The notes beneath the pieces are model-generated. The model saw nothing but the letters and a program-made list of their open reading frames with translations. It did not search any database and was not told the DNA's origin. This document shows, in pieces, positions 1-50,016 of a stretch of 50,016 bases of DNA. The first letter of the stretch is position 1. Every line of letters begins with the position of its first letter. This DNA comes from Planctomycetia bacterium (lineage in GTDB: Bacteria > Planctomycetota > Planctomycetia > Pirellulales > UBA7805): contig JAIOQB010000260.1 of the NCBI GenBank assembly GCA_021413585.1, forward strand, positions 1-50,016. Reading direction: 5' to 3'. The translations under genes were made by a program, and so were the position numbers.

Positions 1-4
1 GACG

Positions 5-313
5 TTGTACATCGAGCCTGGCTCGCCCTGGCAGAACGGTTATGCCGAGAGCTTTCACAGTCGGCTGCGGAGCGAACTGCTCGACGCCGAGGTCTTCGAG
101 AACGTGGCGGCCGCCCAGTCGCTGGCCGCGAATTGGCGTAGTGACTACAACCACCATCGGCCCCACAGTGCTCTTGGTTATCGCACCCCAGCTGAGTTCG
201 CCGCCGGTTGTGCTACTTCCGCTACGGCTTCGGCTACGCCTCAGCCTACGCTCCAGCAGCACAACCGACTTCCTGCAGGAGGCTTACCCGTTACCCAACC
301 CGTACTCTCATAA
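5..313 (+). mobile_element. IS3-family transposase OrfB C-terminal fragment (rve integrase core), truncated by window start
   Basis: Translation YIEPGSPWQNGYAESFHSRLRSELLD...WRSDYNHHRPHSALGYRTPAEF matches the conserved C-terminus of IS3-family OrfB integrase-core domains; ORF runs off the 5' window edge. Confidence 0.8.
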
Positions 314-622
314 CCCCTGGTACTAAAAATGGGGGCATTCCAAGGCTACATGACACTTGAGTTCGACGGCCCGCGCCTCCAAGAAACCGTGCATGACGCG
401 ACCGGCACGGTGCTGTTTGAATCCACATTCGATGCGTAGCCCGGTCGATGGCATTCTGAATTAAATGCCATGAGGCGACTGCGCGATGTGCGGCTCTTTT
501 GTCCCGCGAAGACTTGAAGTTTCCAATTCCAATCGTTCTAATCGATATTTAATTGCCAGGCGGCATCGCATTCCCACGCTGCAATTCCACTTTCTTTTCC
601 AACGCGATGGCAAGGTCGCAAT

Positions 623-1771
623 ATGGGGGCTGGTCAGATGGAATTGACTGTCTTGGTATATCTGAAAGACGTCGACACGCGCGTCCTCTGGCCCAGTCTA
701 TTGTCGCAGGCCGAAGCGTCGATTGCGAAGTCGCTACCAACCGGTGTGCGCACGTTTGAAGTGCTTTACACCACTTCGCTGGAAAGCGCGGAAGCGAAAC
801 TCAACCAATTGTTCAGCGAGCGGCCTTGCGCCGCCGTCATACTACTGTCCGACGCATTGCTCGATCCGGACGACTCCTGGCGTGTCGAATGGCGCGCGAC
901 CTCGGCGATGAAGTGTTTGCGAGACGAGTACGCAGACCACCACTATCTCTCTTTGGCAGTGGGCAATGACGACCGGCGGGTGCCCGACGTCGACATCATG
1001 CTGAACAAGCGTTGTAACTTGAGAAAGCTGTTGGCGGCCTTGAATCTGTTGATCGACCGTGCGAGATACTACTCGCGCCCCGCGAAATGCCCAGAACCAA
1101 GCGGGCTTAAAATTCGCGCGATTAACAGTCAAGCCGAGCTGCGCGACGCGTTCAAGCTTCGCTATGCCGTTTATCGCGTCATGGGATATTTAAGCGAAGA
1201 TGCGATGGACATCGAGCAATTGATGGAGTTGGACGGTTGCGATTGCTGGTCAAACCATTTTGGCGCCTTTGTAGCCCAACCCGACGGCTCGCAAACGTTG
1301 GTGGGCACGGCTCGCCTGATCATGACTCGCAACTACGATGACCGCTATAAGCACTGGACAAACAGCTCGGCCACGACGTATTCACTAAAGAAGTTGTTGG
1401 AAAGAAGGAAGTCGGAACTGGTCAACTTTCGACTGCCTATTTTTCTCACGCTACCGCTAAACGATGAAATGACCAAGGCATTTAAGTCCATTTGGCCGTG
1501 GGCCGAATTGAGCCGCGTGATCGTGGCGCCTGAGTATCGCGGGGCGGAAATCGGGCGTAGCATTATTGAGTTCGCGGTCAGTGAGGCCGACCGGCTGAAT
1601 ACCGAAAGTGTCCTGCTGGAATGCCTGGAATTGCACCGGCCGATGTATGAGAAAATGGAATTCCAGCCGCTGGGACGCGGCGGCGTGGTGATGGGAGTCG
1701 GAAAGACGATGGTCGGCATGCAGCGAATGCATCCAAAACTAGCGGAAATATGCCAGACGGAAAAGACGTAG
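623..1771 (+). CDS. GNAT-fold N-acyltransferase (autoinducer-synthase/N-acyl amino acid synthase-like) with ~150-aa N-terminal extra domain
   Basis: 382-aa ORF; C-terminal half has FKLRYAVYRVMGYL...GTARLI and VIVAPEYRGAEIGRSIIEFAV motifs typical of the GNAT acyl-transfer fold (FeeM/exosortase-associated acyltransferase-like). Confidence 0.6.
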   Translation: MGAGQMELTVLVYLKDVDTRVLWPSLLSQAEASIAKSLPTGVRTFEVLYTTSLESAEAKLNQLFSERPCAAVILLSDALLDPDDSWRVEWRATSAMKCLRDEYADHHYLSLAVGNDDRRVPDVDIMLNKRCNLRKLLAALNLLIDRARYYSRPAKCPEPSGLKIRAINSQAELRDAFKLRYAVYRVMGYLSEDAMDIEQLMELDGCDCWSNHFGAFVAQPDGSQTLVGTARLIMTRNYDDRYKHWTNSSATTYSLKKLLERRKSELVNFRLPIFLTLPLNDEMTKAFKSIWPWAELSRVIVAPEYRGAEIGRSIIEFAVSEADRLNTESVLLECLELHRPMYEKMEFQPLGRGGVVMGVGKTMVGMQRMHPKLAEICQTEKT

Positions 1772-1892
1772 GCGGTGGTTAGGACCTGGATCTTTGGCGT
1801 GGGGCGATGATCGGAGAACTCAGGCTGGAGCGCGGAACCGCCTGCGTCTGCTGATCCCATGTCAGTTGAACTTTGAACATGAGAATCACCGC

Positions 1893-3611
1893 ATGGCAAC
1901 AACGCAAAATGGTCCGTCGCGACCGCTGGTATTCATTGGCTCCTCTTCGGAAGGCATTGACGTCGCCATGGAAATCCAGGCGGCGTTGGTAGACAAATGC
2001 GACGTCATTGTTTGGAACCAATTCTTTTTTCACCAGGGTCAGGCATTTCTCGAAGGACTGACCTCGCAGGTGGACAAATTTGACTTTGCCGTATTGGTTT
2101 TCACTCCCGATGACTCTGTGAACGCGCGGGGCAAGGTGGGCCCAGCGCCACGCGACAACGTGCTCTTCGAACTGGGATTGTTCATGGGAGGCCTGAGTCG
2201 GAGCCGGACGTTCGTCATCTATGAGGATTGCGAGGGGTTCAAGATACCCAGCGATTTGGCGGGCATTGCCTATGCCTCATACCGCCGGTCCGAAGTGGTC
2301 CCGCTGACGGCGTCGCTTGGCCCTCCGTGCCTGGGGATACGCAAGGAAATTGTCACGCTCGGCCTGCGCAAGCGGTCGTTCCAACAGGAGACTCTGCCCC
2401 CGCCCACCAGCCCAAAACAGGGCGACATCGAAGACAAAGTGGGCAAGCTCGTCGACGAACATAGCGACATCATCGGCGCCTCCGAGGCGCCTCCGGGAAT
2501 GGAACTGTGGTATGAGCAGTTGCGGCCGGTGCTGCGGCAATCGGTTTACTACACCACGCCTACGTATTGGCTCGATACGAACCTCAATGTGTTGGATTGG
2601 AATATCGCCTTTGATCTGGTGTTTTCGGAGATCGCGCCGATCTTGCAGTATCGCCACGTCAACGAGTTGATTGCCCGCCTTGCGAACTACGACGCCGTGT
2701 TCAATCACGCGCGCGAATTTTCTCGCCGGGTCAACGATGGGGAAATGCCCGCCTGCGACATCGAGCCATTGGTTTACCAGTCCGCCCGCTATGGTGACGT
2801 GCGGATGTTGAAGGTTGCAACGCAATTGCATGATATTGAAGGAAGCCTGCGCGGTTGGAATGTTTCGTTGCTTTTGCAGCAGTTGGACTGGGAACTATTC
2901 CAACGGCTACTCGAAGAGCGCATCAACGACGACAAGATGTGGAGCGTCTATGCGTCCGCGTATGATCGCATCTTGACGGGCTATCCCCCTTATCAAAAGC
3001 TCTTGAGCGACGTGGCCTCGGTGGTCCCCGCTTCGGCCGCCATGGTGCTCGATGTGGGGGCTGGCACCGGGAACTCCACAGGAGTGCTGCTGGAGAGGGG
3101 GTTTTCGGTGGTGTCCCTGGAAAAGAACGCGACGATGATCGATCATCTGCGTGCCCGACATTTCGACGCTGCCAAGCATCGCATTGTAAAAGGCTCGGCG
3201 GACACCCTGCATACTTTGCGCAGTATCCAGGATGGAATTTTTGACGCGGTCATTCTCGTCAACGTGTTGTACGGCCTGGACGATCCACTTGCGTGCCTGA
3301 AGGGGGTAAATCGCGTCTTGAAGCCTGGCGGCGTTGTGGGCTTGTCGACGACGCACTCGGCGATTTCACTTGATTTATTGTTGGCGAATATAAAAACGTG
3401 GCTGATGAGCCAGAATTTGTTCGATAGCTTGCAGGATGACTACGACAAGTTGTGCGAGGTTAATATCCGAATCGAGCACACCATCGCGCGACGACATTCT
3501 GCCGACAATTACCGCGAAATGCTCCGCGAAGCCGGGTTTACCATCGAGCGGTGCGAAGATTACACGTACCAGGGTGCCGTCATGTTGGTTCATGCACGAA
3601 AGTTGGGGTGA
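1893..3611 (+). CDS. TIR-like (pfam10137/COG4271-type) nucleotide-binding domain fused to class I SAM-dependent methyltransferase
   Basis: N-terminal VFIGSSSEG...DFAVLVFTPDD...PRDNVLFELGLFMGGLSRSRTFVIYE...KIPSDLAGIAY matches the TIR-like CAP12-type domain signature; C-terminal VLDVGAGTGN...VLKPGGVVGLST is a Rossmann SAM-MTase motif I/post-I; likely start at Met34 of the listed ORF (ATGGCAACA at 1893). Confidence 0.7.
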   Translation: MATTQNGPSRPLVFIGSSSEGIDVAMEIQAALVDKCDVIVWNQFFFHQGQAFLEGLTSQVDKFDFAVLVFTPDDSVNARGKVGPAPRDNVLFELGLFMGGLSRSRTFVIYEDCEGFKIPSDLAGIAYASYRRSEVVPLTASLGPPCLGIRKEIVTLGLRKRSFQQETLPPPTSPKQGDIEDKVGKLVDEHSDIIGASEAPPGMELWYEQLRPVLRQSVYYTTPTYWLDTNLNVLDWNIAFDLVFSEIAPILQYRHVNELIARLANYDAVFNHAREFSRRVNDGEMPACDIEPLVYQSARYGDVRMLKVATQLHDIEGSLRGWNVSLLLQQLDWELFQRLLEERINDDKMWSVYASAYDRILTGYPPYQKLLSDVASVVPASAAMVLDVGAGTGNSTGVLLERGFSVVSLEKNATMIDHLRARHFDAAKHRIVKGSADTLHTLRSIQDGIFDAVILVNVLYGLDDPLACLKGVNRVLKPGGVVGLSTTHSAISLDLLLANIKTWLMSQNLFDSLQDDYDKLCEVNIRIEHTIARRHSADNYREMLREAGFTIERCEDYTYQGAVMLVHARKLG

Positions 3612-3899
3612 TGGCGGCACCCTACCCCGGCTGTGATAATCCGGCCGTGGTTGGTGTTGAAAGACGACGATGGTTATTTTTCCCGGACTGGAAGCCATCG
3701 AATCGCCGCCGCGATTGCGGCTGGTTTGGACGCGGTGCCTTGTGTTGTATGCTGTCCTCCTTCGTGCGGCCTCATCCGAAGTAGGGAGGAGCAATTATTC
3801 CACTGACTTGAGCGTGTCCGTTCCGCCATCTGCATCTTCGTTTTTTCGCCGAGGGCCGTCAAGATTTGACCATCGCCAACCCACACAGGAGGACACGCG

Positions 3900-4307
3900 A
3901 TGGCCAACAAGATTCGAGACGCGAAGCGGGAGGCTTTTTGGCGGCGGGTGCTGGGACGGCAGCGTAATGGCGGGCATTCCATCCGGACGTTCTGCCGTAG
4001 CGAGAAGCTCCGCGAGCCATCGTTCTATGCCTGGCGGCGGGTGATTGCCCAGCGTGACGCGGAGCGGTCGCCGCGACGCTCGATGTCCAGCAACAGCCGG
4101 AAGCGGCGACGTGTCCGTCGCCCAACGCCCCGGCGAGCATTCGTGCCCGTGGTGCTCGGCGGCAATCAGCCGCCGGAGCCAGCCGGCATCGTGCTTGAGC
4201 TTCGCGGCGGACGACGACTCCTCCTGTCGGAGTCGATGCCCGCTGCCCGGCTGGCCGAATTGATCGGCGCCCTGGAATCGGCGCCGCAGCAGGAGGCCGC
4301 ATCGTGA
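3900..4307 (+). CDS. tnpA: IS66 family accessory protein TnpA (Orf1)
   Basis: 135 aa, helix-turn-helix-like N-term, ...FYAWRRV... motif, overlaps start of tnpB by 4 nt (ATGA). Confidence 0.7.
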   Translation: MANKIRDAKREAFWRRVLGRQRNGGHSIRTFCRSEKLREPSFYAWRRVIAQRDAERSPRRSMSSNSRKRRRVRRPTPRRAFVPVVLGGNQPPEPAGIVLELRGGRRLLLSESMPAARLAELIGALESAPQQEAAS

Positions 4308-4639
4308 TCGGGACTGTATCAGCCGGGAAGGATGTCCAGGTCTGGGTGGCCACCATGCCCGTCGATATGCGGAAGAGCTTCGACGGCCTGGCCGAAGTGG
4401 TCCGTAGCTTCCTGGGCCAAAACCCGCTCTCAGGCAGCCTGTTCGTGTTCCGCAACCGCAATGCGCAGCGCGTGAAGATCCTTTGGTGGGACCGCGATGG
4501 CCTGGCGATCTACTACAAGCGCCTGGAGCGGGGCACGTTTCAATTCCCGGCCAGCGGCGCGAAGTCTGTCAACATCGACAGTGCGCAGCTCATGCGGCTC
4601 TTGAGCGGAATGAAACTGACGGCGCGGCGCGCGTCGTGA
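4304..4639 (+). CDS. tnpB: IS66 family accessory protein TnpB (Orf2)
   Basis: 111 aa; MIGTVSAGKDVQVWVATMPVDMRKSFDGLAEVV...FVFRNRNAQRVKILWWDRDGLAIYYKRLERGTFQFP is the highly conserved IS66 Orf2 sequence. Confidence 0.9.
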   Translation: MIGTVSAGKDVQVWVATMPVDMRKSFDGLAEVVRSFLGQNPLSGSLFVFRNRNAQRVKILWWDRDGLAIYYKRLERGTFQFPASGAKSVNIDSAQLMRLLSGMKLTARRAS

Positions 4640-4692
4640 AACGTTTTCTTGCCACGCGGAACCTTTGCAACCGTTGCGTGTTCTAATAGGGC

Positions 4693-5607
4693 ATGAGCAA
4701 GGACGCCCCCATCGAAGTTGCCGAGTTGCCCGACGATCCACAGTTGCTGAAACAGCTTCTTGTTCAGCGCGAGGCAGTGATCGAACGTGTGAGGCATGAA
4801 GCGGCCGAGCGGATTCAGTCGCTTGAAGAGCGCATGGCCGCGATGGAAGCGGAACACAAGGCCGCCATCCTGGCCATCCTGCGGCGCTACTACGGTCCCC
4901 GCAGCGAGCGCTTCGACCCGCGGCAACTGCTGCTCTTCGGCCAGTTGATCGACCAGATGCCGCTGGACGAGGCGGGCGAGGAACTGACCACCCGCCGGAT
5001 CAAGAACCGCCACAAGCACGGCCGGCAGCAACTGCCCGACACGCTGCCGCGGATCGAGATCGAGCACGACCTGCCGGACGCCGAGAAGCCGTGCCCCTGC
5101 TGCGGCGAGCTGCGGCAACGGATCGGCCAGGACATCAGCGAGCAGCTCGAGTACTTCCCGGCCAGCTTCCAGGTGCTCAAGCACGTCCGCCCCAAGTACG
5201 CCTGCCCGAAGTGCGAGCAGGATGGCTACAACCCGCAGATCGCGGCGGCGCCCAAGCCGCCGCAGCCGATCGAGAAGGGGTTGCCGGGGCCGGGCCTGCT
5301 GGCCTATGTGGTCACGAGCAAGTTGGGAGACCATCTGCCGCTCTATCGGCTCGAAAAGATCTTCTCCCGGCAGGGGGTCCAGATCGCGCGGAGCACGATG
5401 TGCGCCTGGATGCAGGGGGGCGGCGACTTGGCCCGGCCGCTGGTGGACCTGAGGATCGGGCGCATCAAGCAATCGCGCGTGATCCACACCGACGACACGA
5501 CGGTTCCCGTGCAGGAGCGGGGCCTCACCACGGCCGACGGCCGGGGCAAGTGCAAGACGGGCCGCATCTGGACGTATCTCGGCGACGGCGCCAATAGGAT
5601 CGCCTGA
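4693..5607 (+). pseudogene. tnpC: IS66 family transposase TnpC, C-terminally truncated (~300 of ~510 aa)
   Basis: Leucine-zipper N-term, CPCCGELRQRIGQD...KYACPKCEQDG zinc-ribbon, HLPLYRLEKIFSRQGVQIARSTMCAWM core; ORF stops at 5607 well before the normal C-terminus. Confidence 0.85.
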
Positions 5608-5658
5608 CTCGTCATCTCCTTTCCAGGCAACAGTGCGCCACCGATTGAGTTCAGGCCG

Positions 5659-5994
5659 CTACGATGCTTTTTCCGGCCTCGATAAGATCGTCGCGTCTAC
5701 TGTCGCCGTCGCCATTGTTATTGGCTTGATCGCGGAGACAATCCGCGACACTCGCTTTGGGGTGATCGGCTGGCGGGTGGTAAGGCCCATGATCGGAAAC
5801 ACCAGGCCTTGCCGGTCCACCCGCGGGGTCTTCAGCAGGAACTCGGCGAAGTCGGGCGTCATCGGCAACAGCCGGTCTTGTCCTCCTTTGTCCGCCTCGG
5901 CGTAGATGCGCAGGCGGGGCCGGCGCCCCGATAGGTCGACCATGATGGGCATGTCGGCGTCCCACGAGAAAATCAGAGACTCCTCCAGCCGCAA
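5659..5994 (-). pseudogene. possible tyrosine-recombinase (integrase) catalytic-domain fragment
   Basis: 111-aa ORF with ...ADKGGQDRLLPMTPDFAEFLLK... resembling the TKTGK.R.VPL..EL..LL segment of phage-integrase family catalytic domains; no full-length protein. Confidence 0.3.
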
Positions 5995-6056
5995 GCTCGA
6001 CCGCCAAAGGCCTTCCAGGTAATCACGCGGCGCGATGCTGGGACGTCTCAGGCCTG

Positions 6057-9713: not shown

Positions 9714-10638
9714 AAGCAAACTGCGCTCCTGCCCGCTTCCCGGCTCATGCGTGATGTGATCGTTCCGGTGGTGAACGTCAACGTCCCGGCGGCTACGGCC
9801 GATCTCGGTCGATGTGACCGACGCGTGTTAGCTGGGTACAAACGCGCCGTCATGTTAGAAAACGGTCCATGGATGAATGGATTCAGAAAACGTACGGCCG
9901 GCGGGACGATGGGGCGCCAAAATGAGGGGGCTCGGATATGAAAGGCCATGTCTCTCTACTGGGCACCTGGCAGGCTAGAAGGAACGGATCGTCCGGAGGG
10001 CCGCTTTCCTAGAGCGGCGGCCGGTCAGACCGGCTGAGATGATTGTGCTACCTCCTCCGTCGCTTACTTCTGGATCGAGACGGCGATGTTGGTCAAGTTC
10101 GTCCGCATCTGGGTGACGAGCGCGGTGAGCCGGGTGGTACTCCCCCTGAAATGACAGAGCGGCACTACGCTGCTTGGATCGCTTCTCTCCGTTGGCAACA
10201 GAGTGGACTTTTTCCGTCGAGTGTGACCCCCGTTTGGGATGGACTTTCGTTTGGAGTGGCCGGCGGCGCCGGTGCGAACTCTTAACAATTCGTTCCACCC
10301 GCTGCCACCCGCACGCGACCCGCGCGATTATGTCGCTCGCGGCCGCCCTTCTGACTTCCCGCGCGGGCACCGCCGCTCGCACATCCCGCAAATTCCGTGC
10401 AAACGCATGTTAATCCAGTCCGCACAATCGCTTGGCCAAAAGTCTGTGGGTCTTAGCAGTTGTGCCGCTAAACATATTGGCTTGCGCTCTTTCCGGTCGA
10501 AACAGTCGAGAAGATTTAGTGCCTAACCCAAGACTCCGTCGCCCCGCGGCAGGCGAGTCGCCGTGGCGACCCGGCCCGCTCCCGCAGGGAGGGAGTACGG
10601 GATAGGCACAGTTCCTCTGGTTCTCTTAAATCCGCACC

Positions 10639-41160: not shown

Positions 41161-44100
41161 GTGAGAACGCTCATGCGACTCCACAAGATTCTGGCCGCGC
41201 CGGCAAGGGCCCAGTTCGGATTCAAAGATGGGGGAATCACGGCACACGGCTATCGCCTCGGCACGGTGCTGGCCCTGGCTGGGGCCACGCTGCTGTTTAC
41301 TACCGCATCGCGGGGGGCGGACTACGGCCTCAACGGAGGGACTTCCGGCACGCCTCTGGACTGGAACAATTCCGCATCTTGGTGGCAGTTTAGCAACGCC
41401 GCCAACCAGCAGGTTCCCGGCTCTGCGGACAATGCATGGGTAGGAGCGTGGTGGGACACGGGCGGCGGGGCGTTCTTTCCTCAATCAACTTATACCACCC
41501 TCTCCAGCGGTGCTTTACAGGTTCACGACCTCAATCTGGCCATCAACAACCGCGATCAAAACTCTCAGGCCCAGGGCACACTCAATGTCACAGGCGCGTC
41601 CACTTCACTAGGTGTTCTGGGCAGCCTCAACATGAACATTTGGGGTAATCAGAATGGCAATGTTTCCGGCACGCTCAACATCGACGCCGCGACAATCAAT
41701 GTCAGCAATGATTCCAACATCGGCACGGGCGGCGGTCTTAATTCGGCCAACGTCAGCATCTCGAATGGCGGGCAATTGAACTTCGCCAATAATCTAAATG
41801 TGGGCACGGATCGTGGCGTCAGGGGGACAAACATCACGCTGAGCGAAACGTCGCAGCTAAACGTATTAAACAGCCTGAACCTTAACGGCACGTTCAACAT
41901 CGGCCCCAGCGCGCAGGTAAACATCGGCAACGACCTGAACCTGCGGGGCGGCAACTGGTACGACGAAGGCCTGGGCGCGAACAGCGTGGCGGCCTACAAC
42001 CTGCCGCTGACTTCGACGCCGACCGCCGGGATGGTCTCGTTCGGCCGCAGCCTGACGATCGCCAACGGCTACAACCAAAACGTCAGCCTGACGGTCGACT
42101 CCGGCGCTACCACGGCCAGCTACAGCGGCGGCCTGTACATCGCCAGCGGCGATTACGCCAACCACGGCACGCTCAATCTCGTCGGCGTAGCGGCCGCCAA
42201 CCGCACGATGAACTTCGCCGGCGACCTGCAGATGTCCTACGGCAATGCCCGCGGGGATACCACCAACGGGTCGTTCGCCACCTTAAACCTCAACAACGAC
42301 GGTTCGAATAACTTCGGCGCCATCGTGAACATCGCCGGCAACCTGTGGGCCGGTTACACAAACAGCAACCGCGACCAGCAGAACAGCGCCGCCGCGATCA
42401 ACGTCAGCTCGAAGTCGCAGTTGAACCTCACCGGCGGCCTCTTCCTCAACGGCTCGGGAAGCTGGAACGGGGCTAGCGTGAACGGTTCAAACTGGGATCC
42501 GGCCAACTACACCTTGAATCTGGCCAACACGCCGACCAACGGCACGGTGTCGTTTAACGGGGGTCTGAATCTGACCACCAACGACAACTACGGCAACGTC
42601 AGCCTGACCGTGGGCAGCGGCAGCGCTACGACGATTAACGCCACCCAGTTCAACATGGCCCAGTCGTATTCGAGCCAGGGAACATTCACGATGGGGGGGA
42701 ACCACGTCCTGCACGTCTCGGCCAACGACAGTTATATGGCCACCGGCGGCAGCGACTATGGCAGCGGCTACTCCAATAACGCCACGTTGAATCTCAGCAA
42801 CACGGCCCAACTGAACTTCGACGGCAACCTGACGATGGGCATGGACCGCACCAGCCACGTCAACCAGGTGAACGTCAATCTGGCCAACTCGTCGCAGCTC
42901 AACATCGGCAACAGCCTGACGTTCAACGGCACGTTCAACATCGGCCCCAGTGCCCAGGTAAACATCGGCAACGACCTGAACCTGCGGGGCGGCAACTGGT
43001 ACGACGAAGGCCTCGGCGCGAATAGCGTGGCCGCCTACAACCTGGCGCTGACTTCGACGCCCACGGCCGGCATGGTCTCGTTCGGCCGCAGCCTGACGAT
43101 CGCCAACGGCTACAACCAGAACGTCAGCCTGACGGTTGACTCCGGCGCCACCACGGCCAGCTACGCCGGCGGCCTGTACATCGCCAGCGGCGACTATGCC
43201 AACCACGGCACGCTCAATCTCGTCGGCGGAGCGGCCGCCAACCGCACGATGAACTTCGCCGGGGACTTGCAGATGTCTTACGGCAATGCCCGCGGGGATA
43301 CCACCAACGGGTCGTTCGCCACCTTAAACCTCAACAACGACGGTTCAAACAACTTCGGCGCGATTCTCAACGTCGCCGGCAACCTGCTGATCGGTTACTC
43401 CAACAACGACCAGAATCAACAAAACAGCGCCGCTGAAATCAACATTAGCTCGCAGTCGCAATTGAATATCGGTGGCAGCGTTTATTTCCGCGGCTCGGGT
43501 GCGTGGAACGGCTCCACCTTTGGGACGACCAGCTACAACCTCGGCCTCGCCGCCGCGCCGACCAACGGCGCGATGACGTTCGGCGGAGGGCTGAATATCG
43601 CCGACACCAATTTCAACAAGGCGGCGGTGACGTTTACCGGTACGGGGACGGTTTCCGCCCACGGTGACGTCAACGTCGCCACCGGCTATCGGACGGGCGG
43701 CTCGTTGACGCTCGACGGCGTGAGCATCAGCTCCAACGGCAGCGGCCGTTTCGCCACTGCCGGCGACAGCGGCGATCCGACGAACCATCCCAACACGGCC
43801 ACCGTCACGCTGCTCAATGGCGCGTCGCTGAGCTTCAACAATCAGACCCAACTCGGCAACGGCGGCAGCTCTTCCGCTTCGATTACCGGCAATGGAACTT
43901 TTGACGCCGGCAGCAATTTCTACAACAGCGGTCGAGTGGTCGCCAGCGGCGGGACGCTCAATGTCAACTACGGTAACCTGAACACCCCCAGTAGCGGCTG
44001 GAACGGCAACCTGCAGGCGGACGGCACGCAAGCGGGGTGGTATGCCACGGACGGCGGCCTGTTGGCCATGAAGAACGCCACCGTCGCCAACGGCGCAACG

Positions 44101-46524
44101 AAAGTGATCTGGGGCGAGAACGCCAGCCTCAGCTCTCTCAGTACAAATAGTCTCGTCAACAGCGCACAACTCACGGCCGCATTCTCTGGCAGCGGCGGCA
44201 GCGCGGCGATCAACGGCGTGCTGATCGCGCCGAATCTCGTGACCGGCCTGACCAACACCATTGGCGTCTGGGACTTCCGCTCGATGGGAGGCCTGTCGTT
44301 CACCGACGGAACGCTCACGTTCCGCTATGACGATGCTTTGGCCGCCAGCCTAGGCGCCGCCACCAACGCCCTGGAGATTTTTCAGTTCCAAGCCGGCAAC
44401 TGGACCTTGATCAGCGGCGCCTCGGCCAGCGGCAACCTCATCAGCACCACGGCCAACATCGTTGCCAATTTCGGCTCGGGCTCCTATTTCGCCATCGCCA
44501 CCGCGGGGGGCGCGGGCAGCGTTCCGAGCACGACTCCCTACGTCGGCACCCGCGCGACGACGGAAATCTATGCCACCAGCGCGAACGTCGACTGGACGAC
44601 CGATCCGGGTTGGTACAACCGCGATCGCAACACGCTCGTCGGCGCCCCGCAAGGGCGGGACAACGTGCACATCGGCAGCGGCACCGGCACCACGGTCGCG
44701 CTGAGCGACGGTCAGAGCTACCAGGCGGGCAACCTGTACATCGGCCTGTCCGACGACAACAACCCGGCCTCGAACTACAACTGGGCCAACGGCACGCTTA
44801 ACATCAGCAACGGCTCGACGCTGAATGTCGTCGGCAACGTGCAGGTAGCCAGTTGGAGCGACAATACCACTAACGGCACGCTGAGCCTGGATGGCGCCTC
44901 GACGATGAATGTCGGCGGCGCGCTCTATCTGGCCAATAACAACAATTCGACCGCAACGCTCAATCTGGCGAATGGCTCGATACTGAACGTTGCCGGCGGC
45001 GCCATCCTGGGACACGGCACCAAGTCGGTCAATATTGACGCCACGTCGCAGTGGAACCTGACCGGGGGCACGCTGTACCTCGACAACGACCGCTACACCT
45101 CGGACGGCGCCAACGGCTCGTTCAAGCTCCCCTTCGCCAGCACTCCGACCGGCGGCAAGATTTCGGTCACGGCGGCCACCAGCTTGGCGATCCGCGATCA
45201 GTGGGGCAACGACGCTTCGCTCACGCTCGACGGAAGCGCCAACGGCATCACGTTCAACAATCTCTACCTGGGCACCGACGTCAACACCAGCAACGTCGCC
45301 ACACTCAACGTCGCCGGCGCCACGGTGACGTTCAACGGCAACGCCGAACTGGGCAGCCACTATGGCGAGAATGGCGGCCGCTGGAACAACGCCTCGGCCA
45401 CCGCCGTCAACGTCACCAGCGGCGGCGTGCTAAACATCGGCGGCAACGTGACCGCCGGCGGCTGGAGCAACAACGCTCAGACTTCGTCCACGATCGCGAT
45501 CGCCGGCGATTCCCAGCTCAACATGACCGGGACCAACATGCGGCTGGACCTCAAGGCGGGCAATTATTCCATCGCCTTCGCCAACACGCCCACCAACGGC
45601 AAGTTCTCCGTCAGCCCCACGACCAATATCTGGATTGCCAACGCCGAGGACAATTTCACTTTCCAAAGCACGCTCACCATGGCCGCCGGTTCCAACGTGC
45701 AGTTCAACACGCTGACGATGGCGTGGGACAACGCGTCCCAAAACTCCACCGCCAACCTGAACATCGGCAGCGCGTCGAACGTGACGTTCACCGGGCCCGC
45801 CTACATGGGAGGCCGCAGCGCCTGGGCGAACCAAGGGCAGGGGGTGGTCAACGTCAGCGTGGCGGACGGCAGCGTCCTGAACTTCGGCAACACCATGTTC
45901 ATGGGTGGGCAGTCGAGCCTCGACCTCCACGACAGCGGCCGGGTGAACGTCGCCGGCGACGTCTATCTCGGCGGACAAGGCTCCGCGACGAACATCACGC
46001 TGGGCGCCTCCTCGCAAATCAACATGACCGGCGCGGGCCGCGCGCTCGCCTTGGCCGACGGCGACTACAGCGGCTACGTGTTCACCAACACCCCGACCGA
46101 CGGCCAGTTCTCCGTCACGCAGAGCACGAATCTCTTCGTTCGCCCGCAGGCGGCCAACGCGACGGTGGCGTTCGGCCCCGGCTCGAACATCCAATTCAAC
46201 AACCTCTACCTGGGAACCGACGTTAACACCAGCAACACCGCCACGATGAATCTTTCGGCCGCCACCGTCACGTTCAGCAGCAATGCCGAGTTGGGCAGCC
46301 ACTACGGAGATAACGGCGGCCGCTGGAACAACGCCGCCAACACGGCCATCAACGTCGCCAACGGCAGCGTGCTCAATTTCGGCGGCAACGTGACCGCCGG
46401 TGGCTGGAGCAACAATGCCCAAACGACCTCCACCATCGCGATCGAAAGCGACTCCCAGATCAACATGACCGGCAACAACATGCGGCTGGACCTCAAGGCA
46501 GGCAACTATTCCATAACACGCTGA
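41161..46524 (+). CDS. giant repetitive surface protein, N-terminal ~1787 aa (Asn/Gly/Thr-rich beta-strand repeats; autotransporter-associated beta-strand repeat type)
   Basis: Signal-like N-term; dozens of ...TLNL.N.S.LN..GNL..G... repeats; ORF ends at 46524 where reading frame shifts. Confidence 0.75.
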   Translation: MRTLMRLHKILAAPARAQFGFKDGGITAHGYRLGTVLALAGATLLFTTASRGADYGLNGGTSGTPLDWNNSASWWQFSNAANQQVPGSADNAWVGAWWDTGGGAFFPQSTYTTLSSGALQVHDLNLAINNRDQNSQAQGTLNVTGASTSLGVLGSLNMNIWGNQNGNVSGTLNIDAATINVSNDSNIGTGGGLNSANVSISNGGQLNFANNLNVGTDRGVRGTNITLSETSQLNVLNSLNLNGTFNIGPSAQVNIGNDLNLRGGNWYDEGLGANSVAAYNLPLTSTPTAGMVSFGRSLTIANGYNQNVSLTVDSGATTASYSGGLYIASGDYANHGTLNLVGVAAANRTMNFAGDLQMSYGNARGDTTNGSFATLNLNNDGSNNFGAIVNIAGNLWAGYTNSNRDQQNSAAAINVSSKSQLNLTGGLFLNGSGSWNGASVNGSNWDPANYTLNLANTPTNGTVSFNGGLNLTTNDNYGNVSLTVGSGSATTINATQFNMAQSYSSQGTFTMGGNHVLHVSANDSYMATGGSDYGSGYSNNATLNLSNTAQLNFDGNLTMGMDRTSHVNQVNVNLANSSQLNIGNSLTFNGTFNIGPSAQVNIGNDLNLRGGNWYDEGLGANSVAAYNLALTSTPTAGMVSFGRSLTIANGYNQNVSLTVDSGATTASYAGGLYIASGDYANHGTLNLVGGAAANRTMNFAGDLQMSYGNARGDTTNGSFATLNLNNDGSNNFGAILNVAGNLLIGYSNNDQNQQNSAAEINISSQSQLNIGGSVYFRGSGAWNGSTFGTTSYNLGLAAAPTNGAMTFGGGLNIADTNFNKAAVTFTGTGTVSAHGDVNVATGYRTGGSLTLDGVSISSNGSGRFATAGDSGDPTNHPNTATVTLLNGASLSFNNQTQLGNGGSSSASITGNGTFDAGSNFYNSGRVVASGGTLNVNYGNLNTPSSGWNGNLQADGTQAGWYATDGGLLAMKNATVANGATKVIWGENASLSSLSTNSLVNSAQLTAAFSGSGGSAAINGVLIAPNLVTGLTNTIGVWDFRSMGGLSFTDGTLTFRYDDALAASLGAATNALEIFQFQAGNWTLISGASASGNLISTTANIVANFGSGSYFAIATAGGAGSVPSTTPYVGTRATTEIYATSANVDWTTDPGWYNRDRNTLVGAPQGRDNVHIGSGTGTTVALSDGQSYQAGNLYIGLSDDNNPASNYNWANGTLNISNGSTLNVVGNVQVASWSDNTTNGTLSLDGASTMNVGGALYLANNNNSTATLNLANGSILNVAGGAILGHGTKSVNIDATSQWNLTGGTLYLDNDRYTSDGANGSFKLPFASTPTGGKISVTAATSLAIRDQWGNDASLTLDGSANGITFNNLYLGTDVNTSNVATLNVAGATVTFNGNAELGSHYGENGGRWNNASATAVNVTSGGVLNIGGNVTAGGWSNNAQTSSTIAIAGDSQLNMTGTNMRLDLKAGNYSIAFANTPTNGKFSVSPTTNIWIANAEDNFTFQSTLTMAAGSNVQFNTLTMAWDNASQNSTANLNIGSASNVTFTGPAYMGGRSAWANQGQGVVNVSVADGSVLNFGNTMFMGGQSSLDLHDSGRVNVAGDVYLGGQGSATNITLGASSQINMTGAGRALALADGDYSGYVFTNTPTDGQFSVTQSTNLFVRPQAANATVAFGPGSNIQFNNLYLGTDVNTSNTATMNLSAATVTFSSNAELGSHYGDNGGRWNNAANTAINVANGSVLNFGGNVTAGGWSNNAQTTSTIAIESDSQINMTGNNMRLDLKAGNYSITR

Positions 46525-46526
46525 CG

Positions 46527-49500
46527 ATGGCCTGGGACAACGCATCGCAGAACTCCACCGCCAATTTGAACTTCGGCATCGCGTCGAACGTAACCTTCAC
46601 CGGGGCGGCCAACCTGGGAGGCCGCAGCGCCTGGGGGAATCAAGGGCAGGGGATCGCGCACGTCAGCGTGGCGGACGGCAGCGTGGTGAACTTCGGCAGC
46701 GCGGTGTTCATGGGTGGCCAGTCGAGCCTCAACCTCAATAGCAGCGGCCAAGTCAACGCCGCCAACGATGTGTACTTTGGCGGACAGGGCTATGCGACTA
46801 CCGTCACGCTGGGGGTCGCGTCGCAGCTCAACATGACCGGCTCCGGGCGCACGTTGGCTTTCGCCGACGGCGATTACAGCAGCCTCAAGATCAACAATAC
46901 GCCGGCCGGTGGCAGGATCTCGGTTACCTCGAGCACGAACCTGAATGTCCGCCCGCAGGGAGCCGACGCGACCGTGGCCTTCGGCGCCGCATCCAACGGG
47001 CTGCAACTCAGCAACCTGTTTCTGGGAACCGACGTCAACAGCAGCAACACCGCCAATCTAAACGTCGCGGGAGCCACGGTCACGTTCAGCGGCAGCGCCG
47101 AACTGGGAAGCCATTACGGCGACAACGGCGGCCGCTGGAATAACGCCGCCAATACGGCGATCAATGTCACCAACGGCGGCGTCCTCAACATCGGCGGGAA
47201 TCTCACCGCCGGCGGCTGGAGCAGCAATGCCCAAACGAGCGCCGCGCTGAACGTCGACGCCACGTCGCAGATCAACCTGACCGGCAAGAACAACCGGATC
47301 GACATCAAGGGAGGGACCACCACCGCGCAGTTCACCAACACGCCCACCAACGGCGCGGTGTCGCTGCAGGCCCAGTCGCATACCAACGCGGGGACCGATC
47401 TTTGGCTCTCCAACGCGTTGGACAATTTTCCGCTCAACGCCCGGCTCAATTTTGCCGCCGGCACGAACGTCCAATTCCACAACCTGCGGATGGCCTGGGA
47501 CAATGCCTCCGCAGGATCGCAGCCGACGATGGGTCTGCAAGGCGGGGCGCAGGTCACGTTCACCGGCGACAGCTACATCGGCGGCAACCCCGGCAACCAA
47601 GGAAGCGCAGTGATCACCGGCAACGGCACGCTCACATTCAACCAAACGCTCAACATGGGCCGCACGCACGTCGAGGCCAACGGCGGCACGTTGACGTTGA
47701 ACTTTCCGTCGTATAACCGGACCGAAACGTCCAACGTGATGAACACCCCTGTCGGCACCGGGCTGGGGGCCAACAGTTACGCCGGCTGGTACGCCAGCAA
47801 TGGCGGCAAGCTGGTGCTGCCCAACCTGACGGTCACCAACAGCACCAGCCAACTCGATTGGGGCGATGTCAGCAACAACGCGATGGACATCAATCGAAAC
47901 GTCAACAGCATCCGCCTGACCAACCTCAACGTCACCGGCGGCGGAACCAACAACCTGGGCATCTCGCTCTTGGACGTGAACAACGCCGAGACGTTCTCCG
48001 GCTTGCACGGCGCGATCGGCATTTGGAAGTTCGATCCGACGGGGGGACTCAATATCACGTCGGCATTGATGGCGTTCCGCTACGACACGGCGGCGATGGC
48101 CGCCCTGCAGTTGCCCGACTCCAGCTTCAACCTGTACGAAAACTTCGGCACCGGCTGGAAGCTGCTGCAGAGTTCGCCCCAGGATCAGGGGAACCATTTG
48201 ATCAGCGGCACCGGCACGCTGATCAACGCCAACGGTCCGTATCCCTACGTGCAGTTCGCCATCGCCCAAACGGTGGCCGCTTCGGGGGGCGTGGTCTGGA
48301 ATGGTGCCAGCAGCGGCCCCGGCGACAACAACTGGACCACTGCGGCCAATTGGGTGGGCAATGCGGCCCCCACGCCCGGCTCGAACAACGATCAGGATCT
48401 CGTTCACTTCGCCGGCAGTCAGCGGACCAGCGCCGTCAATGATTTCGCCCCCGGATCGTCGTTCTCCGGCATCTTGTTCGGCCAGGACGCCACCGCTTCC
48501 TTCTCGCTCACGGGCAACGCCATCGTGCTCAACGGCGATGTCACCAACAGCTCGAACCTCAGCCACAATATCGCCCTGAACATGGCGCTGGCCCACGCGA
48601 CGACCGTGGTGGACAGCGGCAGCAACAACAACCAGGTGGTCACGCTCAGCGGAAACCTCAGCGACAACGGCGGCCCGGCCGGCATCACGAAGCTCGGCAA
48701 TGGCAGCACGCTGGTCCTCTCCGGCAGCAACACCAACACGGGGGCGATTCTGATTTCTGAGGGGACGGTGAGCGTCGGCTCGATCGGCATGGGGGGAGCC
48801 GCCAGCAACCTCGGCGCGGCCAGCAACGCCGCCAGCAACCTCGTGATGGACGGCGGCCGGTTGCAGTACACCGGCGCGGGGGACACCACGGATCGCAACT
48901 TCACGATCAACAACGGCAAGGTGGCCACGTTCGACATCACCAACGCCGCGGCCAAGCTGGTGCTCGGCGCAGCTTCCAACGTCTCCACCGGCACCTTGAC
49001 CAAGACCGGAGCCGGCACGCTGGCGCTGACCGGCCAGAGCCAGTACACCGGAGCAACCACGGTCACCGGCGGCGCGTTGTCCGTCGGCGACGGCGGCAGC
49101 GGCAATTCGCTGGCCACCTCCGGCATCACGTTCTCCAACGGCGCGAAGTTGATTTTGAATCAATCCGACAGTTCGACCTTCTCCACACCGTTTAGCGGCG
49201 CGGCGGGACTGATTAAGGACGGCACCGGCACGGTCACTTTGCCGGGGGTCGCCGGCAGCTACACCGGTGCGACCGAAATCAAGAATGGCACGCTGCGGCT
49301 GGTGCCCGCGTCGCCGGTGTCCAACGGGCTGCAAGCCTGGTTCGCGGCCAATAAGAACGTGACCACCAGCGGCACTCAAGTGACCACCTGGGGAGACATC
49401 TCGGGCAACGGCCACGACGCCGTGCTCGGCGCCAACACGTCGACTCTGGCAGCCGGGCAGATCAACGGGCTGCCCGCCGTGCAGTTCCGCAATAGCTGGC

Positions 49501-50016
49501 TGGACATCAACACCAACATGACCGTGGGCTCGGAATACATCGTCGTCAAGTCTGGGGCGTACACGTACGATCCGGGCAACCCCAATCACTTTGGTCCCGA
49601 CTGGAGCGCGGCGATTGGGCGTCAGGACGGCGGGGGCTGGTTGTTCTGGCCCGGCCAAACCGGTTTCTGGGATGGAAACAGCCCCAGCGCCGTTTCGCAG
49701 AATGGCACTCCGCTAGCCTCCTACACCGTCAACGGCCTGACCAATGTCGACCAGTACATGGTGCTCAAGGTCGACACCAACAACGTCGCCAATACGCTTT
49801 ACACACTCGGCCGCAACGGCGGCTGGACGAATGGTTATCTGGACGTGGCCGAGGTGCTGGCCTTTGACCATGTGCTGACCTCCGGGGACGAGGCGAAGGT
49901 GGGCGGCTATCTGGCGACGAAGTACGGCATCGGCACCGCATACGCTCCCTACTCGCTGCCGGACGCTCTGCCGGCGAACACGCCAGTCTCGATCAGCACC
50001 GGCGCCACGCTCGACA
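46527..50016 (+). CDS. continuation of giant surface protein in a different frame (PATR-type repeats + C-terminal LamG/ConA-like domain), runs off window end
   Basis: Manual translation from 46527 is open to the window end: ...TLTMAWDNASQNSTANLNFG..., TKLGNGSTLVLSGSNTNTGAILISEGTVSVG, TLTKTGAGTLALTGQSQYTGATTVTGGALSVGDG (PATR), then LQAWFAANKNVTTSGTQVTTWGDISGNGHDAVLG...(LamG-like). Confidence 0.7.
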   Translation, partial: MAWDNASQNSTANLNFGIASNVTFTGAANLGGRSAWGNQGQGIAHVSVADGSVVNFGSAVFMGGQSSLNLNSSGQVNAANDVYFGGQGYATTVTLGVASQLNMTGSGRTLAFADGDYSSLKINNTPAGGRISVTSSTNLNVRPQGADATVAFGAASNGLQLSNLFLGTDVNSSNTANLNVAGATVTFSGSAELGSHYGDNGGRWNNAANTAINVTNGGVLNIGGNLTAGGWSSNAQTSAALNVDATSQINLTGKNNRIDIKGGTTTAQFTNTPTNGAVSLQAQSHTNAGTDLWLSNALDNFPLNARLNFAAGTNVQFHNLRMAWDNASAGSQPTMGLQGGAQVTFTGDSYIGGNPGNQGSAVITGNGTLTFNQTLNMGRTHVEANGGTLTLNFPSYNRTETSNVMNTPVGTGLGANSYAGWYASNGGKLVLPNLTVTNSTSQLDWGDVSNNAMDINRNVNSIRLTNLNVTGGGTNNLGISLLDVNNAETFSGLHGAIGIWKFDPTGGLNITSALMAFRYDTAAMAALQLPDSSFNLYENFGTGWKLLQSSPQDQGNHLISGTGTLINANGPYPYVQFAIAQTVAASGGVVWNGASSGPGDNNWTTAANWVGNAAPTPGSNNDQDLVHFAGSQRTSAVNDFAPGSSFSGILFGQDATASFSLTGNAIVLNGDVTNSSNLSHNIALNMALAHATTVVDSGSNNNQVVTLSGNLSDNGGPAGITKLGNGSTLVLSGSNTNTGAILISEGTVSVGSIGMGGAASNLGAASNAASNLVMDGGRLQYTGAGDTTDRNFTINNGKVATFDITNAAAKLVLGAASNVSTGTLTKTGAGTLALTGQSQYTGATTVTGGALSVGDGGSGNSLATSGITFSNGAKLILNQSDSSTFSTPFSGAAGLIKDGTGTVTLPGVAGSYTGATEIKNGTLRLVPASPVSNGLQAWFAANKNVTTSGTQVTTWGDISGNGHDAVLGANTSTLAAGQINGLPAVQFRNSWLDINTNMTVGSEYIVVKSGAYTYDPGNPNHFGPDWSAAIGRQDGGGWLFWPGQTGFWDGNSPSAVSQNGTPLASYTVNGLTNVDQYMVLKVDTNNVANTLYTLGRNGGWTNGYLDVAEVLAFDHVLTSGDEAKVGGYLATKYGIGTAYAPYSLPDALPANTPVSISTGATLD

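Follow-up and report, generated by a model that had tools for sequence, protein, structure and literature searches.

Cyclic oligonucleotide-based anti-phage signaling systems (CBASS), the pyrimidine cyclase system for anti-phage resistance (Pycsar), Thoeris, and the accessory effectors of type III clustered regularly interspaced short palindromic repeats (CRISPR) systems all place swappable killing modules on conserved cores and, to our knowledge, all signal with nucleotides. The alternation of two transmembrane helices (2TM) with a TIR domain defines the effectors of Pycsar and CBASS. We analyzed a stretch of 50,016 nucleotides from a Planctomycetia bacterium (assembly GCA_021413585.1, contig JAIOQB010000260.1, positions 1 to 50,016), called the window below, for a pair of co-directional plus-strand genes, A and B, with open reading frames (ORFs) at 623-1771 (382 amino acids) and 1794-3611 (605 amino acids, opened by TTG). 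The pair follows the swappable-module logic of CBASS and Pycsar, but its chemistry is different: an acyltransferase of the quorum-sensing or N-acyl-amino-acid-synthase class is combined with an S-adenosylmethionine (SAM) methyltransferase. That the pair is a conflict or cell-death system of some kind is probable, because a constant core carries rotating membrane-disrupting, NAD-destroying, and proteolytic modules. We give about even weight to the narrower reading, in which the two genes make up an abortive-infection-type conflict cassette serving immunity or regulated cell death, and hold the specific synthase and receptor mechanism proposed below only tentatively. The features of the cassette are as follows.

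623-1771, plus strand: gene A, two-domain acyltransferase of 382 amino acids (ORF, homologues, AlphaFold2 [AF2] model)
638-1072, plus strand: gene A N-terminal domain, residues about 6-150 (AF2 secondary structure, invariant columns)
1109-1768, plus strand: GNAT domain of gene A, FeeM/LuxI-like branch (residues about 163-382; Pfam, invariant motifs)
1893-3611, plus strand: gene B, fusion of TIR, PAS-like, and SAM methyltransferase domains, 572 amino acids from an ATG start; the ORF opens at TTG 1794
1920-2363, plus strand: TIR domain of the PF10137 (Cap12/PycTIR) type, predicted NADase, residues about 10-157 (Pfam, PADLOC, and PDB sequence matches)
2364-2459, plus strand: proline-rich, low-confidence linker from TIR to scaffold (predicted local distance difference test [pLDDT] below 50 at residues 163-173; consensus LPPxPP)
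2460-2885, plus strand: middle domain, residues about 190-331, two helices and then a PAS-like beta2-alpha4-beta3 unit (AF2 topology)
2889-3608, plus strand: class I SAM-dependent methyltransferase, residues about 333-572 (Pfam, invariant columns, Foldseek)

Residues of gene B are counted here from the ATG at 1893, the likely start because the orthologues set in some 10 residues ahead of the motif VFIGSS. The public annotation runs from the TTG for 605 residues, whereas the orthologues favor the 572-residue protein. A search of 5.8 billion proteins recovered 15 full-length orthologues with TIR, middle domain, and methyltransferase at 47-61% identity, and a second, larger group with middle domain and methyltransferase but without the TIR. 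The fusion of TIR and methyltransferase, which an earlier note made from the letters of this DNA had called uncommon, is rare in the same search (about 15-20 clusters). Judged on the sequences, the match E-values and the conservation of full-length orthologues at this identity are far beyond chance. The AF2 model of gene B (pLDDT 84.7) comprises, in the 572-residue numbering, a flavodoxin-like TIR (about 12-156), a disordered proline-rich linker, two helices, a unit of PAS topology (224-330), a long helix (333-361), and a Rossmann-type methyltransferase (384-570).

The N-terminal domain of gene B matched the Pfam family PF10137 (CAP12-PCTIR_TIR) at E=1.1e-28, scoring 100.1 bits where the cutoff is 24.7; the match takes in profile positions 2-117 of 119 and residues 46-163 in the 605-residue numbering. 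The domain calls of the earlier note, namely GNAT, pfam10137 TIR-like, and SAM methyltransferase, were all correct according to Pfam. PADLOC models of TIR effectors matched gene B with E-values down to 5.6e-45, and the sequence matches of the TIR in the PDB were Cap12 (9lmq, 6.8e-20), SfSTING (7un8, 1.1e-17), and PycTIR (8jsj, 1e-14). The NADase pocket of SfSTING is formed by F6, S10, W33, F37, L47, R78, and N80 together with the catalytic E84, and D110 is supplied in trans by the neighboring TIR (PMC9402430). With the 8-residue offset of the deposited chain taken into account, and with L47 left unmapped, SfSTING residues F6, S10, W33, F37, R78, N80, E84, and D110 correspond to F14, S18, W41, F45, R87, N89, E93, and D121 of gene B. 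R87, N89, E93, and D121 were invariant in 16 sequences, F14 and W41 were nearly so, and the window protein retains S18 and F45; the codon of the catalytic E93 lies at 2169-2171. Because all eight mapped site residues are kept, including the trans-acting aspartate, the TIR of gene B is very probably a working NADase that is gated by oligomerization.

These matches place the TIR close to two described systems. Cap12 of CBASS (TIR-STING; SfSTING, 7UN8) is the closest solved TIR, and the eight NADase-site residues are common to both proteins. Both also have an N-terminal TIR followed by a ligand-sensing module, a putative one in gene B, and the trans-acting aspartate implies activation by oligomerization. 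In contrast to CBASS, no CD-NTase was found in the window or in related loci, and there is no STING or SAVED domain; NCBIfam models of Cap12 matched only the TIR (model positions 2-123), with 112 bits against a cutoff of 450. Pycsar has the same PF10137-type TIR (8jsj, 1e-14; PADLOC PycTIR, 2.2e-33), a two-gene layout of enzyme and effector, and TIR and transmembrane modules that alternate on a constant ligand-binding module. However, Pfam and PADLOC searches of the window found no nucleotide cyclase and no domain for binding cyclic nucleotide monophosphates. The partner enzyme is instead a FeeM/LuxI-like GNAT, the constant module is PAS-like plus SAM methyltransferase, and the TIR is N-terminal here but C-terminal in PycTIR. 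The PADLOC PycTIR model matched gene B only over the TIR part of the model, positions 140-286.

About 200 residues between the TIR and the methyltransferase belong to no Pfam family. The middle domain carries the motif PTYxLDxNLNxxDWNIAF and has 25 invariant columns across the TIR, 2TM, and DUF4062 variants described below. Its profile, run against 1.84 billion proteins, recovered 393 representative clusters, of which 148 had E<1e-30. It matched no Pfam family, PAS included, and no PDB sequence. In the AF2 model, residues 224-330 form two strands, four helices, and three strands, and the PAS-like assignment is drawn from this predicted topology. A Foldseek search with the whole gene B model returned generic methyltransferases only and was uninformative on the PAS-like domain.

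The methyltransferase itself was matched by Methyltransf_11, _23, and _25 (about 1e-15) and by _12 and _31, all above their Pfam cutoffs and together spanning residues 413-600 of the 605-residue ORF. Its SAM site is intact, with a WSxYAxxYD helix, motif I (D387-x-G-x-G-x-G393-N), E410, and N457; D387, G389, G391, and G393 were invariant and E410 nearly invariant. It belongs to class I by its Rossmann-like fold, motif I, the YD helix at the N-terminus, and an acidic residue that follows strand 2. The PDB entries that Foldseek matched are small-molecule methyltransferases (3l8d, TM1293, Coq5, CysG, CouO/NovO, and CmoA), with target-normalized TM-scores of about 0.65-0.74.

Gene A encodes the second enzyme. 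Its C-terminal half matched the Pfam family FeeM (PF21926) with 33.5 bits against a cutoff of 27, and the modeled fold agrees with this family; Acetyltransf_5, _7, and _1 also matched residues about 160-370. The AF2 model has a pLDDT of 91.2 and a predicted template modeling score of 0.88. Structurally the GNAT lies in the neighborhood of FeeM, its best match by both structure and Pfam, and of the acyl-homoserine lactone (AHL) synthases, LuxI among them. FeeM and AHL synthases make small-molecule signals. E295-L-S-R298 and R306-G307, the acyl-CoA/pantetheine motif A, were invariant across the variants. This motif resembles that of acyl-CoA-dependent GNATs and, like the additional flavodoxin-like N-terminal domain, sets gene A apart from the FeeM and LuxI-type synthases. 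Autoind_synth (PF00765) did not match gene A at E<=0.01, and the counterparts of gene A in two other loci (L013 and L016) matched it at E 0.05-0.08 only. Gene B also differs from the LuxR partner of LuxI, since it has no DNA-binding output and carries cell-killing modules and a methyltransferase.

The search for gene A homologues yielded a small family of 32, all of two domains and 360-520 residues long. The extra N-terminal domain, which the earlier note had already remarked on, is genuine because orthologues span 95-98% of the 382-residue ORF; the public annotation of 304 residues loses half of this conserved domain, and the orthologues favor 382. The domain, about the first 150 residues, had no Pfam match and no significant PDB sequence match, and AF2 predicts a (beta-alpha)5 fold of the flavodoxin or receiver type. 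D77 is invariant and stands directly after strand 3, which we take to be the phospho-acceptor position of receiver domains; R119, D122, and D124 are nearly invariant. A divergent TIR was also considered for this domain and was ruled out (hhalign probability 0.1%).

We examined whether the two genes occur together elsewhere, since the earlier note had named beforehand a failure of the pair to recur in other genomes as grounds for rejecting it. GTDB genomes and JGI metagenomes were scanned and tblastn searches followed. In 40 of the 43 distinct loci that could be decided, a co-directional GNAT gene lies directly upstream of the middle-domain/methyltransferase gene, which clearly removes this ground for rejection; 9 further loci were too short to decide. 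The first six genomic contexts, with or without a TIR, all had this arrangement (6 of 6) amid unrelated neighbors. The first scan of genome contigs used back-translated patterns that turned out to be generic methyltransferase motifs, and 13 of 80 among the matches listed were true relatives. The paired loci come from Planctomycetota (including Pirellulaceae and Planctomycetaceae), Phycisphaerales, Bipolaricaulota, Alphaproteobacteria, Undibacter, Methylococcaceae, and soil metagenomes, a patchy phyletic distribution, and the genes that flank them are unrelated. The GNAT partner is kept with forms of gene B that carry TIR_2 (L013), DUF4062 (L016), or caspase plus TIR_2 (L131-L133).

Several loci showed further features. 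The GNAT of one caspase plus TIR_2 variant (L132, 5446-7008) has 520 residues, about 130 of them extra at the C-terminus, and its gene runs 8 nucleotides into the effector gene, which suggests translational coupling. At two caspase-only loci, L011 and L134, a Pfam-less ORF of 131-147 residues (4748-5191 in L011, 6558-6953 in L134) lies directly upstream, in the place of the GNAT. A distant, effector-less branch (L021, 5983-8399, Methylomonas lenta NZ_LUUI01000076.1; also L018 and L020) encodes a middle-like domain plus methyltransferase in 368-403 residues. In L021 a 426-residue protein with a different type of GNAT (Acetyltransf_1) directly follows the methyltransferase gene amid co-directional Pfam-less ORFs; this combination may be the ancestral enzymatic pairing. 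The description of the pair as defense-island cargo did not hold as a general rule, since neighborhoods elsewhere are heterogeneous and often housekeeping. Some loci do have defense-like neighbors (L007; L134, with a Zeta toxin; and L003). The 2TM-type cassette of L007 (9556-16324) is adjoined by a 1248-residue kinase plus AAA_16 protein and by a Septu-like pair of an AAA_15/AAA_21 ATPase and an HNH protein, with an IS200-type Y1 transposase upstream, a setting that resembles a defense island. In L003, a hydrolase of the metallo-beta-lactamase fold with a weak match to the anti-Pycsar protein Apyc1 (9853-10656) lies directly downstream of a TIR-type cassette and could be a signal-degrading enzyme or a coincidence.

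What is fused to the middle-domain/methyltransferase scaffold varies. We surveyed the best 150 of the 393 middle-domain clusters together with the fetched loci, classified by reference sequences and Pfam, and found 2TM, PF10137 TIR, TIR_2, DUF4062, SIR2_2, Peptidase_C14 caspase, and pYEATS modules. In this set, 2TM was the commonest (about 55 clusters) and caspases accounted for about 25; these counts are indicative only because the set was pooled from three separate searches, with a sampling bias. The caspase of L011 has visible histidine and cysteine motifs (HYSGHG and DCCYSG), and the scaffold caspases are related to those that NCBI labels EACC1-associated type. TIR_2 may be N- or C-terminal and is sometimes doubled, and modules can be stacked, as in a 1004-residue protein (P0188) that joins PF10137 TIR, caspase, scaffold, and TIR_2. 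Effectors are also stacked in P0178, P0197, and the 875-residue P0298-P0309, for example as caspase, scaffold, and C-terminal TIR_2. In a neighbor-joining tree of the core, the TIR clade of the window protein (18 sequences) is nested among 2TM forms, and PF10137, TIR_2, DUF4062, and caspase each occur at more than one place. Module swapping has occurred repeatedly on a constant scaffold. In one protein (P0247) a prokaryotic YEATS domain (PF20305, 1.4e-15) takes the place of the killing module. Eukaryotic YEATS domains read acyl-lysine, and the presence of this domain beside an acyltransferase partner is suggestive.

These exchanges bear on the earlier proposal of an NAD- or nucleotide-modifying conflict system. 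The conflict part gains strong comparative support from the swaps among 2TM, TIR_2, DUF4062, SIR2, and caspase, but the modifying part is not supported. The TIR is exchanged for 2TM, caspase, or SIR2 modules while the methyltransferase stays, so the substrate of the methyltransferase cannot hinge on the TIR. Action of the methyltransferase on the NAD-derived product of the TIR was rejected on the same grounds, and action of the methyltransferase or the GNAT on NAD, nucleotides, or a TIR product is likewise not supported.

The cassette was also compared with systems that share parts of its repertoire. Thoeris (the TIR protein ThsB with the SIR2-SLOG protein ThsA) likewise relies on NADase modules of the TIR and SIR2 kinds, and in it, as proposed here for the cassette, a small molecule signals between two proteins. 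However, the cassette has no SLOG or Macro sensor, and neither gene matched ThsA in PADLOC or Pfam. The TIR of Thoeris is the signal producer, whereas that of the cassette would be the output, because it is exchangeable with transmembrane or caspase modules. The effector-swapping, NTP-dependent conflict systems described by Kaur, Burroughs, Iyer, and Aravind (2020/2021) resemble the cassette in their repertoire of caspase, TIR, and transmembrane effectors and in host range, and caspases of the scaffold type occur in conflict systems of multicellular prokaryotes (PMC7159879). Unlike those systems, the cassette lacks an NTPase core, whether STAND, vWA-MoxR, or another, and also lacks an EACC1 component, and the accounts by these authors do not mention a core of GNAT and methyltransferase. 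No description of a GNAT plus PAS-methyltransferase core was found in the searchable literature, the coverage of which is incomplete, so that an earlier description is possible. The gene pair is thus apparently undescribed; the logic of effector swapping is known, and the enzymatic core appears to be unprecedented.

We propose that the constant core consists of a FeeM/LuxI-like GNAT with a private flavodoxin-like N-terminal domain and of a PAS-like domain joined to an intact methyltransferase, and that an exchangeable killing device, here a TIR NADase of the Cap12/PycTIR type, is fused to the latter. A trigger would probably be read by the N-terminal domain of gene A, and the GNAT would then make an N-acylated small molecule, either acyl-amino-acid-like or a SAM-derived amide. 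The PAS-like/methyltransferase module of gene B would bind this product and oligomerize. Oligomerization would bring TIR domains together so that D121 of one completes the site around E93 of its neighbor, as in SfSTING filaments, and NAD+ would be depleted. The methyltransferase could convert the signal to its active form or could quench it by methylation, much as ring nucleases do in type III CRISPR systems. The sequences themselves show the domain identities, the intact catalytic motifs, the conserved pairing, and the repeated swaps; the immune role, the existence of a diffusible acyl signal, and the order in which information passes are inferred. The resemblance to LuxI/LuxR, a GNAT-fold synthase with a PAS/GAF-like ligand domain, is offered as an analogy.

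Several findings weigh against the reading as a two-gene conflict cassette. The PAS-like call comes from AF2 topology only, and signal-sensing effectors do not usually have a receptor in which an enzyme active site is still completely intact. Three loci (L011, from an Acidobacteriaceae genome, L092, and L134) lack the GNAT, so the scaffold can exist without it. Neighborhoods are mixed and include housekeeping genes (GlnRS and an ABC transporter in L005; ClpP and trigger factor in L131), and no copies of the cassette were found on the phages, plasmids, or IMG/VR viral contigs searched. For the commonest module, 2TM, a plain membrane anchor is another possible reading. Finally, in PADLOC gene B was matched domain by domain by generic TIR effector, PDC-S35, and mad2/methyltransferase models, but no complete system in PADLOC-DB v2.0.0 was matched and the GNAT had no match.

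Some of these observations would also fit another arrangement. The GNAT and methyltransferase could continuously modify a target or metabolite, or the methyltransferase could report SAM occupancy, and perturbation by a phage, for example through a SAM lyase or depletion of acyl-CoA or acyl-ACP, would fire the effector. Such a guard or sensor of modification state would suit the intact cofactor motifs of both enzymes, which look more like those of working enzymes than of a passive receptor. It would also accommodate the three loci without a GNAT and the effector-less Methylomonas lenta branch, whose methyltransferase with a different GNAT suggests an ancestral enzymatic partnership. However, the GNAT is retained almost always beside the scaffold whatever the effector type, which points to dedicated two-component information flow, and no candidate target gene was conserved in the neighborhoods examined. 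We regard a guard as unlikely.

Ordinary biosynthesis is a second alternative, and we find it rather improbable. The GNAT would make an N-acyl amino acid in the manner of FeeM or OlsB and the methyltransferase would methylate it, giving a methyl ester or an N-methylated aminolipid; 2TM would be a membrane anchor and the TIR a regulatory domain for nucleotide binding or oligomerization. FeeM as the best structural and Pfam match, a methyltransferase like those acting on small molecules, the predominance of 2TM, and the several loci among housekeeping genes agree with this, as do weak NCBIfam matches to OlsB (2.6e-3), OlsG (4.5e-5), and PmtA (1e-5). These matches are far below their cutoffs, though, and the OlsB/OlsG aminolipid pair was rejected as an identity for the genes (17.5 and 23.3 bits against cutoffs of 350 each). 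The stieleriacine-type N-acyl-tyrosine cluster of planctomycetes was rejected as well, being organized differently, with four N-acyl amino acid synthase genes and an SfmM2-like C-methyltransferase (PMC7293339). Biosynthesis also does not account for an anchor giving way to caspase, SIR2, TIRs of three kinds, and several of these together, or for the conservation of the complete NADase site with its trans-acting aspartate.

It is similarly improbable that the pair is a LuxI/LuxR-like system in which a population-level signal leads to suicide or arrest, for kin control or development and not for phage defense. The ligand domains of LuxR proteins are PAS/GAF-like, and the candidate receptor here is PAS-like while the GNAT lies in the structural neighborhood of LuxI and FeeM. 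The hosts, Planctomycetota, Acidobacteriota, and similar groups, would also fit, as would caspases of a type from conflict systems of multicellular prokaryotes (PMC7159879). Against this, Autoind_synth does not match gene A and reaches only E about 0.05-0.08 in its relatives, the cassette has no export or uptake gene, and recurrent exchange of effectors is more characteristic of an arms race against parasites.

The surroundings of the cassette in the window were then considered. The following flanking features were found.

5-313, plus strand: terminal (3') part of an IS3-family transposase gene (rve_3 integrase core; Pfam E=3.1e-26 over profile positions 7-67 of 67)
3900-5607, plus strand: decayed IS66-family element downstream of gene B (orf1-like, TnpB_IS66, and truncated DDE transposase)
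3900-4307, plus strand: IS66 orf1-like (weak HTH_Tnp_1 match)
4304-4639, plus strand: TnpB_IS66 (Pfam 3.2e-36)
4693-5607, plus strand: IS66 DDE transposase (DDE_Tnp_IS66 profile positions 1-99 of 284; also zf-IS66 and LZ_Tnp_IS66)

The insertion sequence (IS) downstream is decayed, as the earlier note had stated: its transposase is truncated because the DDE_Tnp_IS66 match stops at profile position 99 of 284. The window takes up the entire 50,016-bp contig, and the upstream IS3 cannot be classed as a fragment because the contig start cuts the transposase gene. In positions 1-6000, the GC fraction is 0.51-0.59 for the cassette and 0.62-0.68 for IS66, compared to about 0.58-0.63 for the chromosome. 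Cassette and IS66 thus differ from each other and from the chromosome, which fits separate horizontal arrivals. The patchy phyletic distribution, together with the IS flanks and lower GC in the window, gives signs that the cassette was acquired horizontally. A decayed IS66 flanks the cassette downstream, an IS3 interrupted by the contig end flanks it upstream, and a scan found no sigma-70-like promoter for it, which might suggest inactive cargo stranded between insertion sequences with no present function. This is very improbable, since both ORFs are full length compared to orthologues, every invariant catalytic residue is intact, and the promoter scan is ill-suited to planctomycetes; the scan for promoters and terminators was uninformative.

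Two small ORFs lie between the cassette, IS66, and yebC: 3633-3806, ParB-like by eye, and 5659-5994, tyrosine-recombinase/integrase-like by eye. Pfam (E<=1) supports neither. Elsewhere the contig has the makeup of an ordinary planctomycete chromosome, with sulfatase, GH2, GH127, a porin of the Legionella_OMP type, and YebC. Five long ORFs, 41161-46524 (plus strand, 1787 residues), 47058-49658 (minus, 866), 10516-12714 (minus, 732), 33499-35124 (plus, 541), and 12575-14002 (plus, 475), were without a Pfam match at the E<=1e-5 level and may represent proteins specific to planctomycetes or, in part, spurious ORFs of GC-rich DNA.

Taken together, the conserved pairing and the exchange of modules lead back to the reading of genes A and B as a conflict cassette, and to the possibility, which we consider doubtful but worth stating, of an immune messenger that is not a nucleotide. 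Such a messenger would be N-acylated, either amino-acid-like or SAM-derived. A FeeM/LuxI-type synthase would make it, and a PAS-like/methyltransferase receptor driving a TIR, SIR2, caspase, or pore effector would read it and then methylate it, to mature it or to switch it off. If this is true, the cassette would extend the known immune messengers by a new class, would gate TIR, SIR2, and caspase effectors in a new way, and would connect the enzymology of quorum sensing with cell-autonomous immunity, as quorum-type chemistry turned inward.

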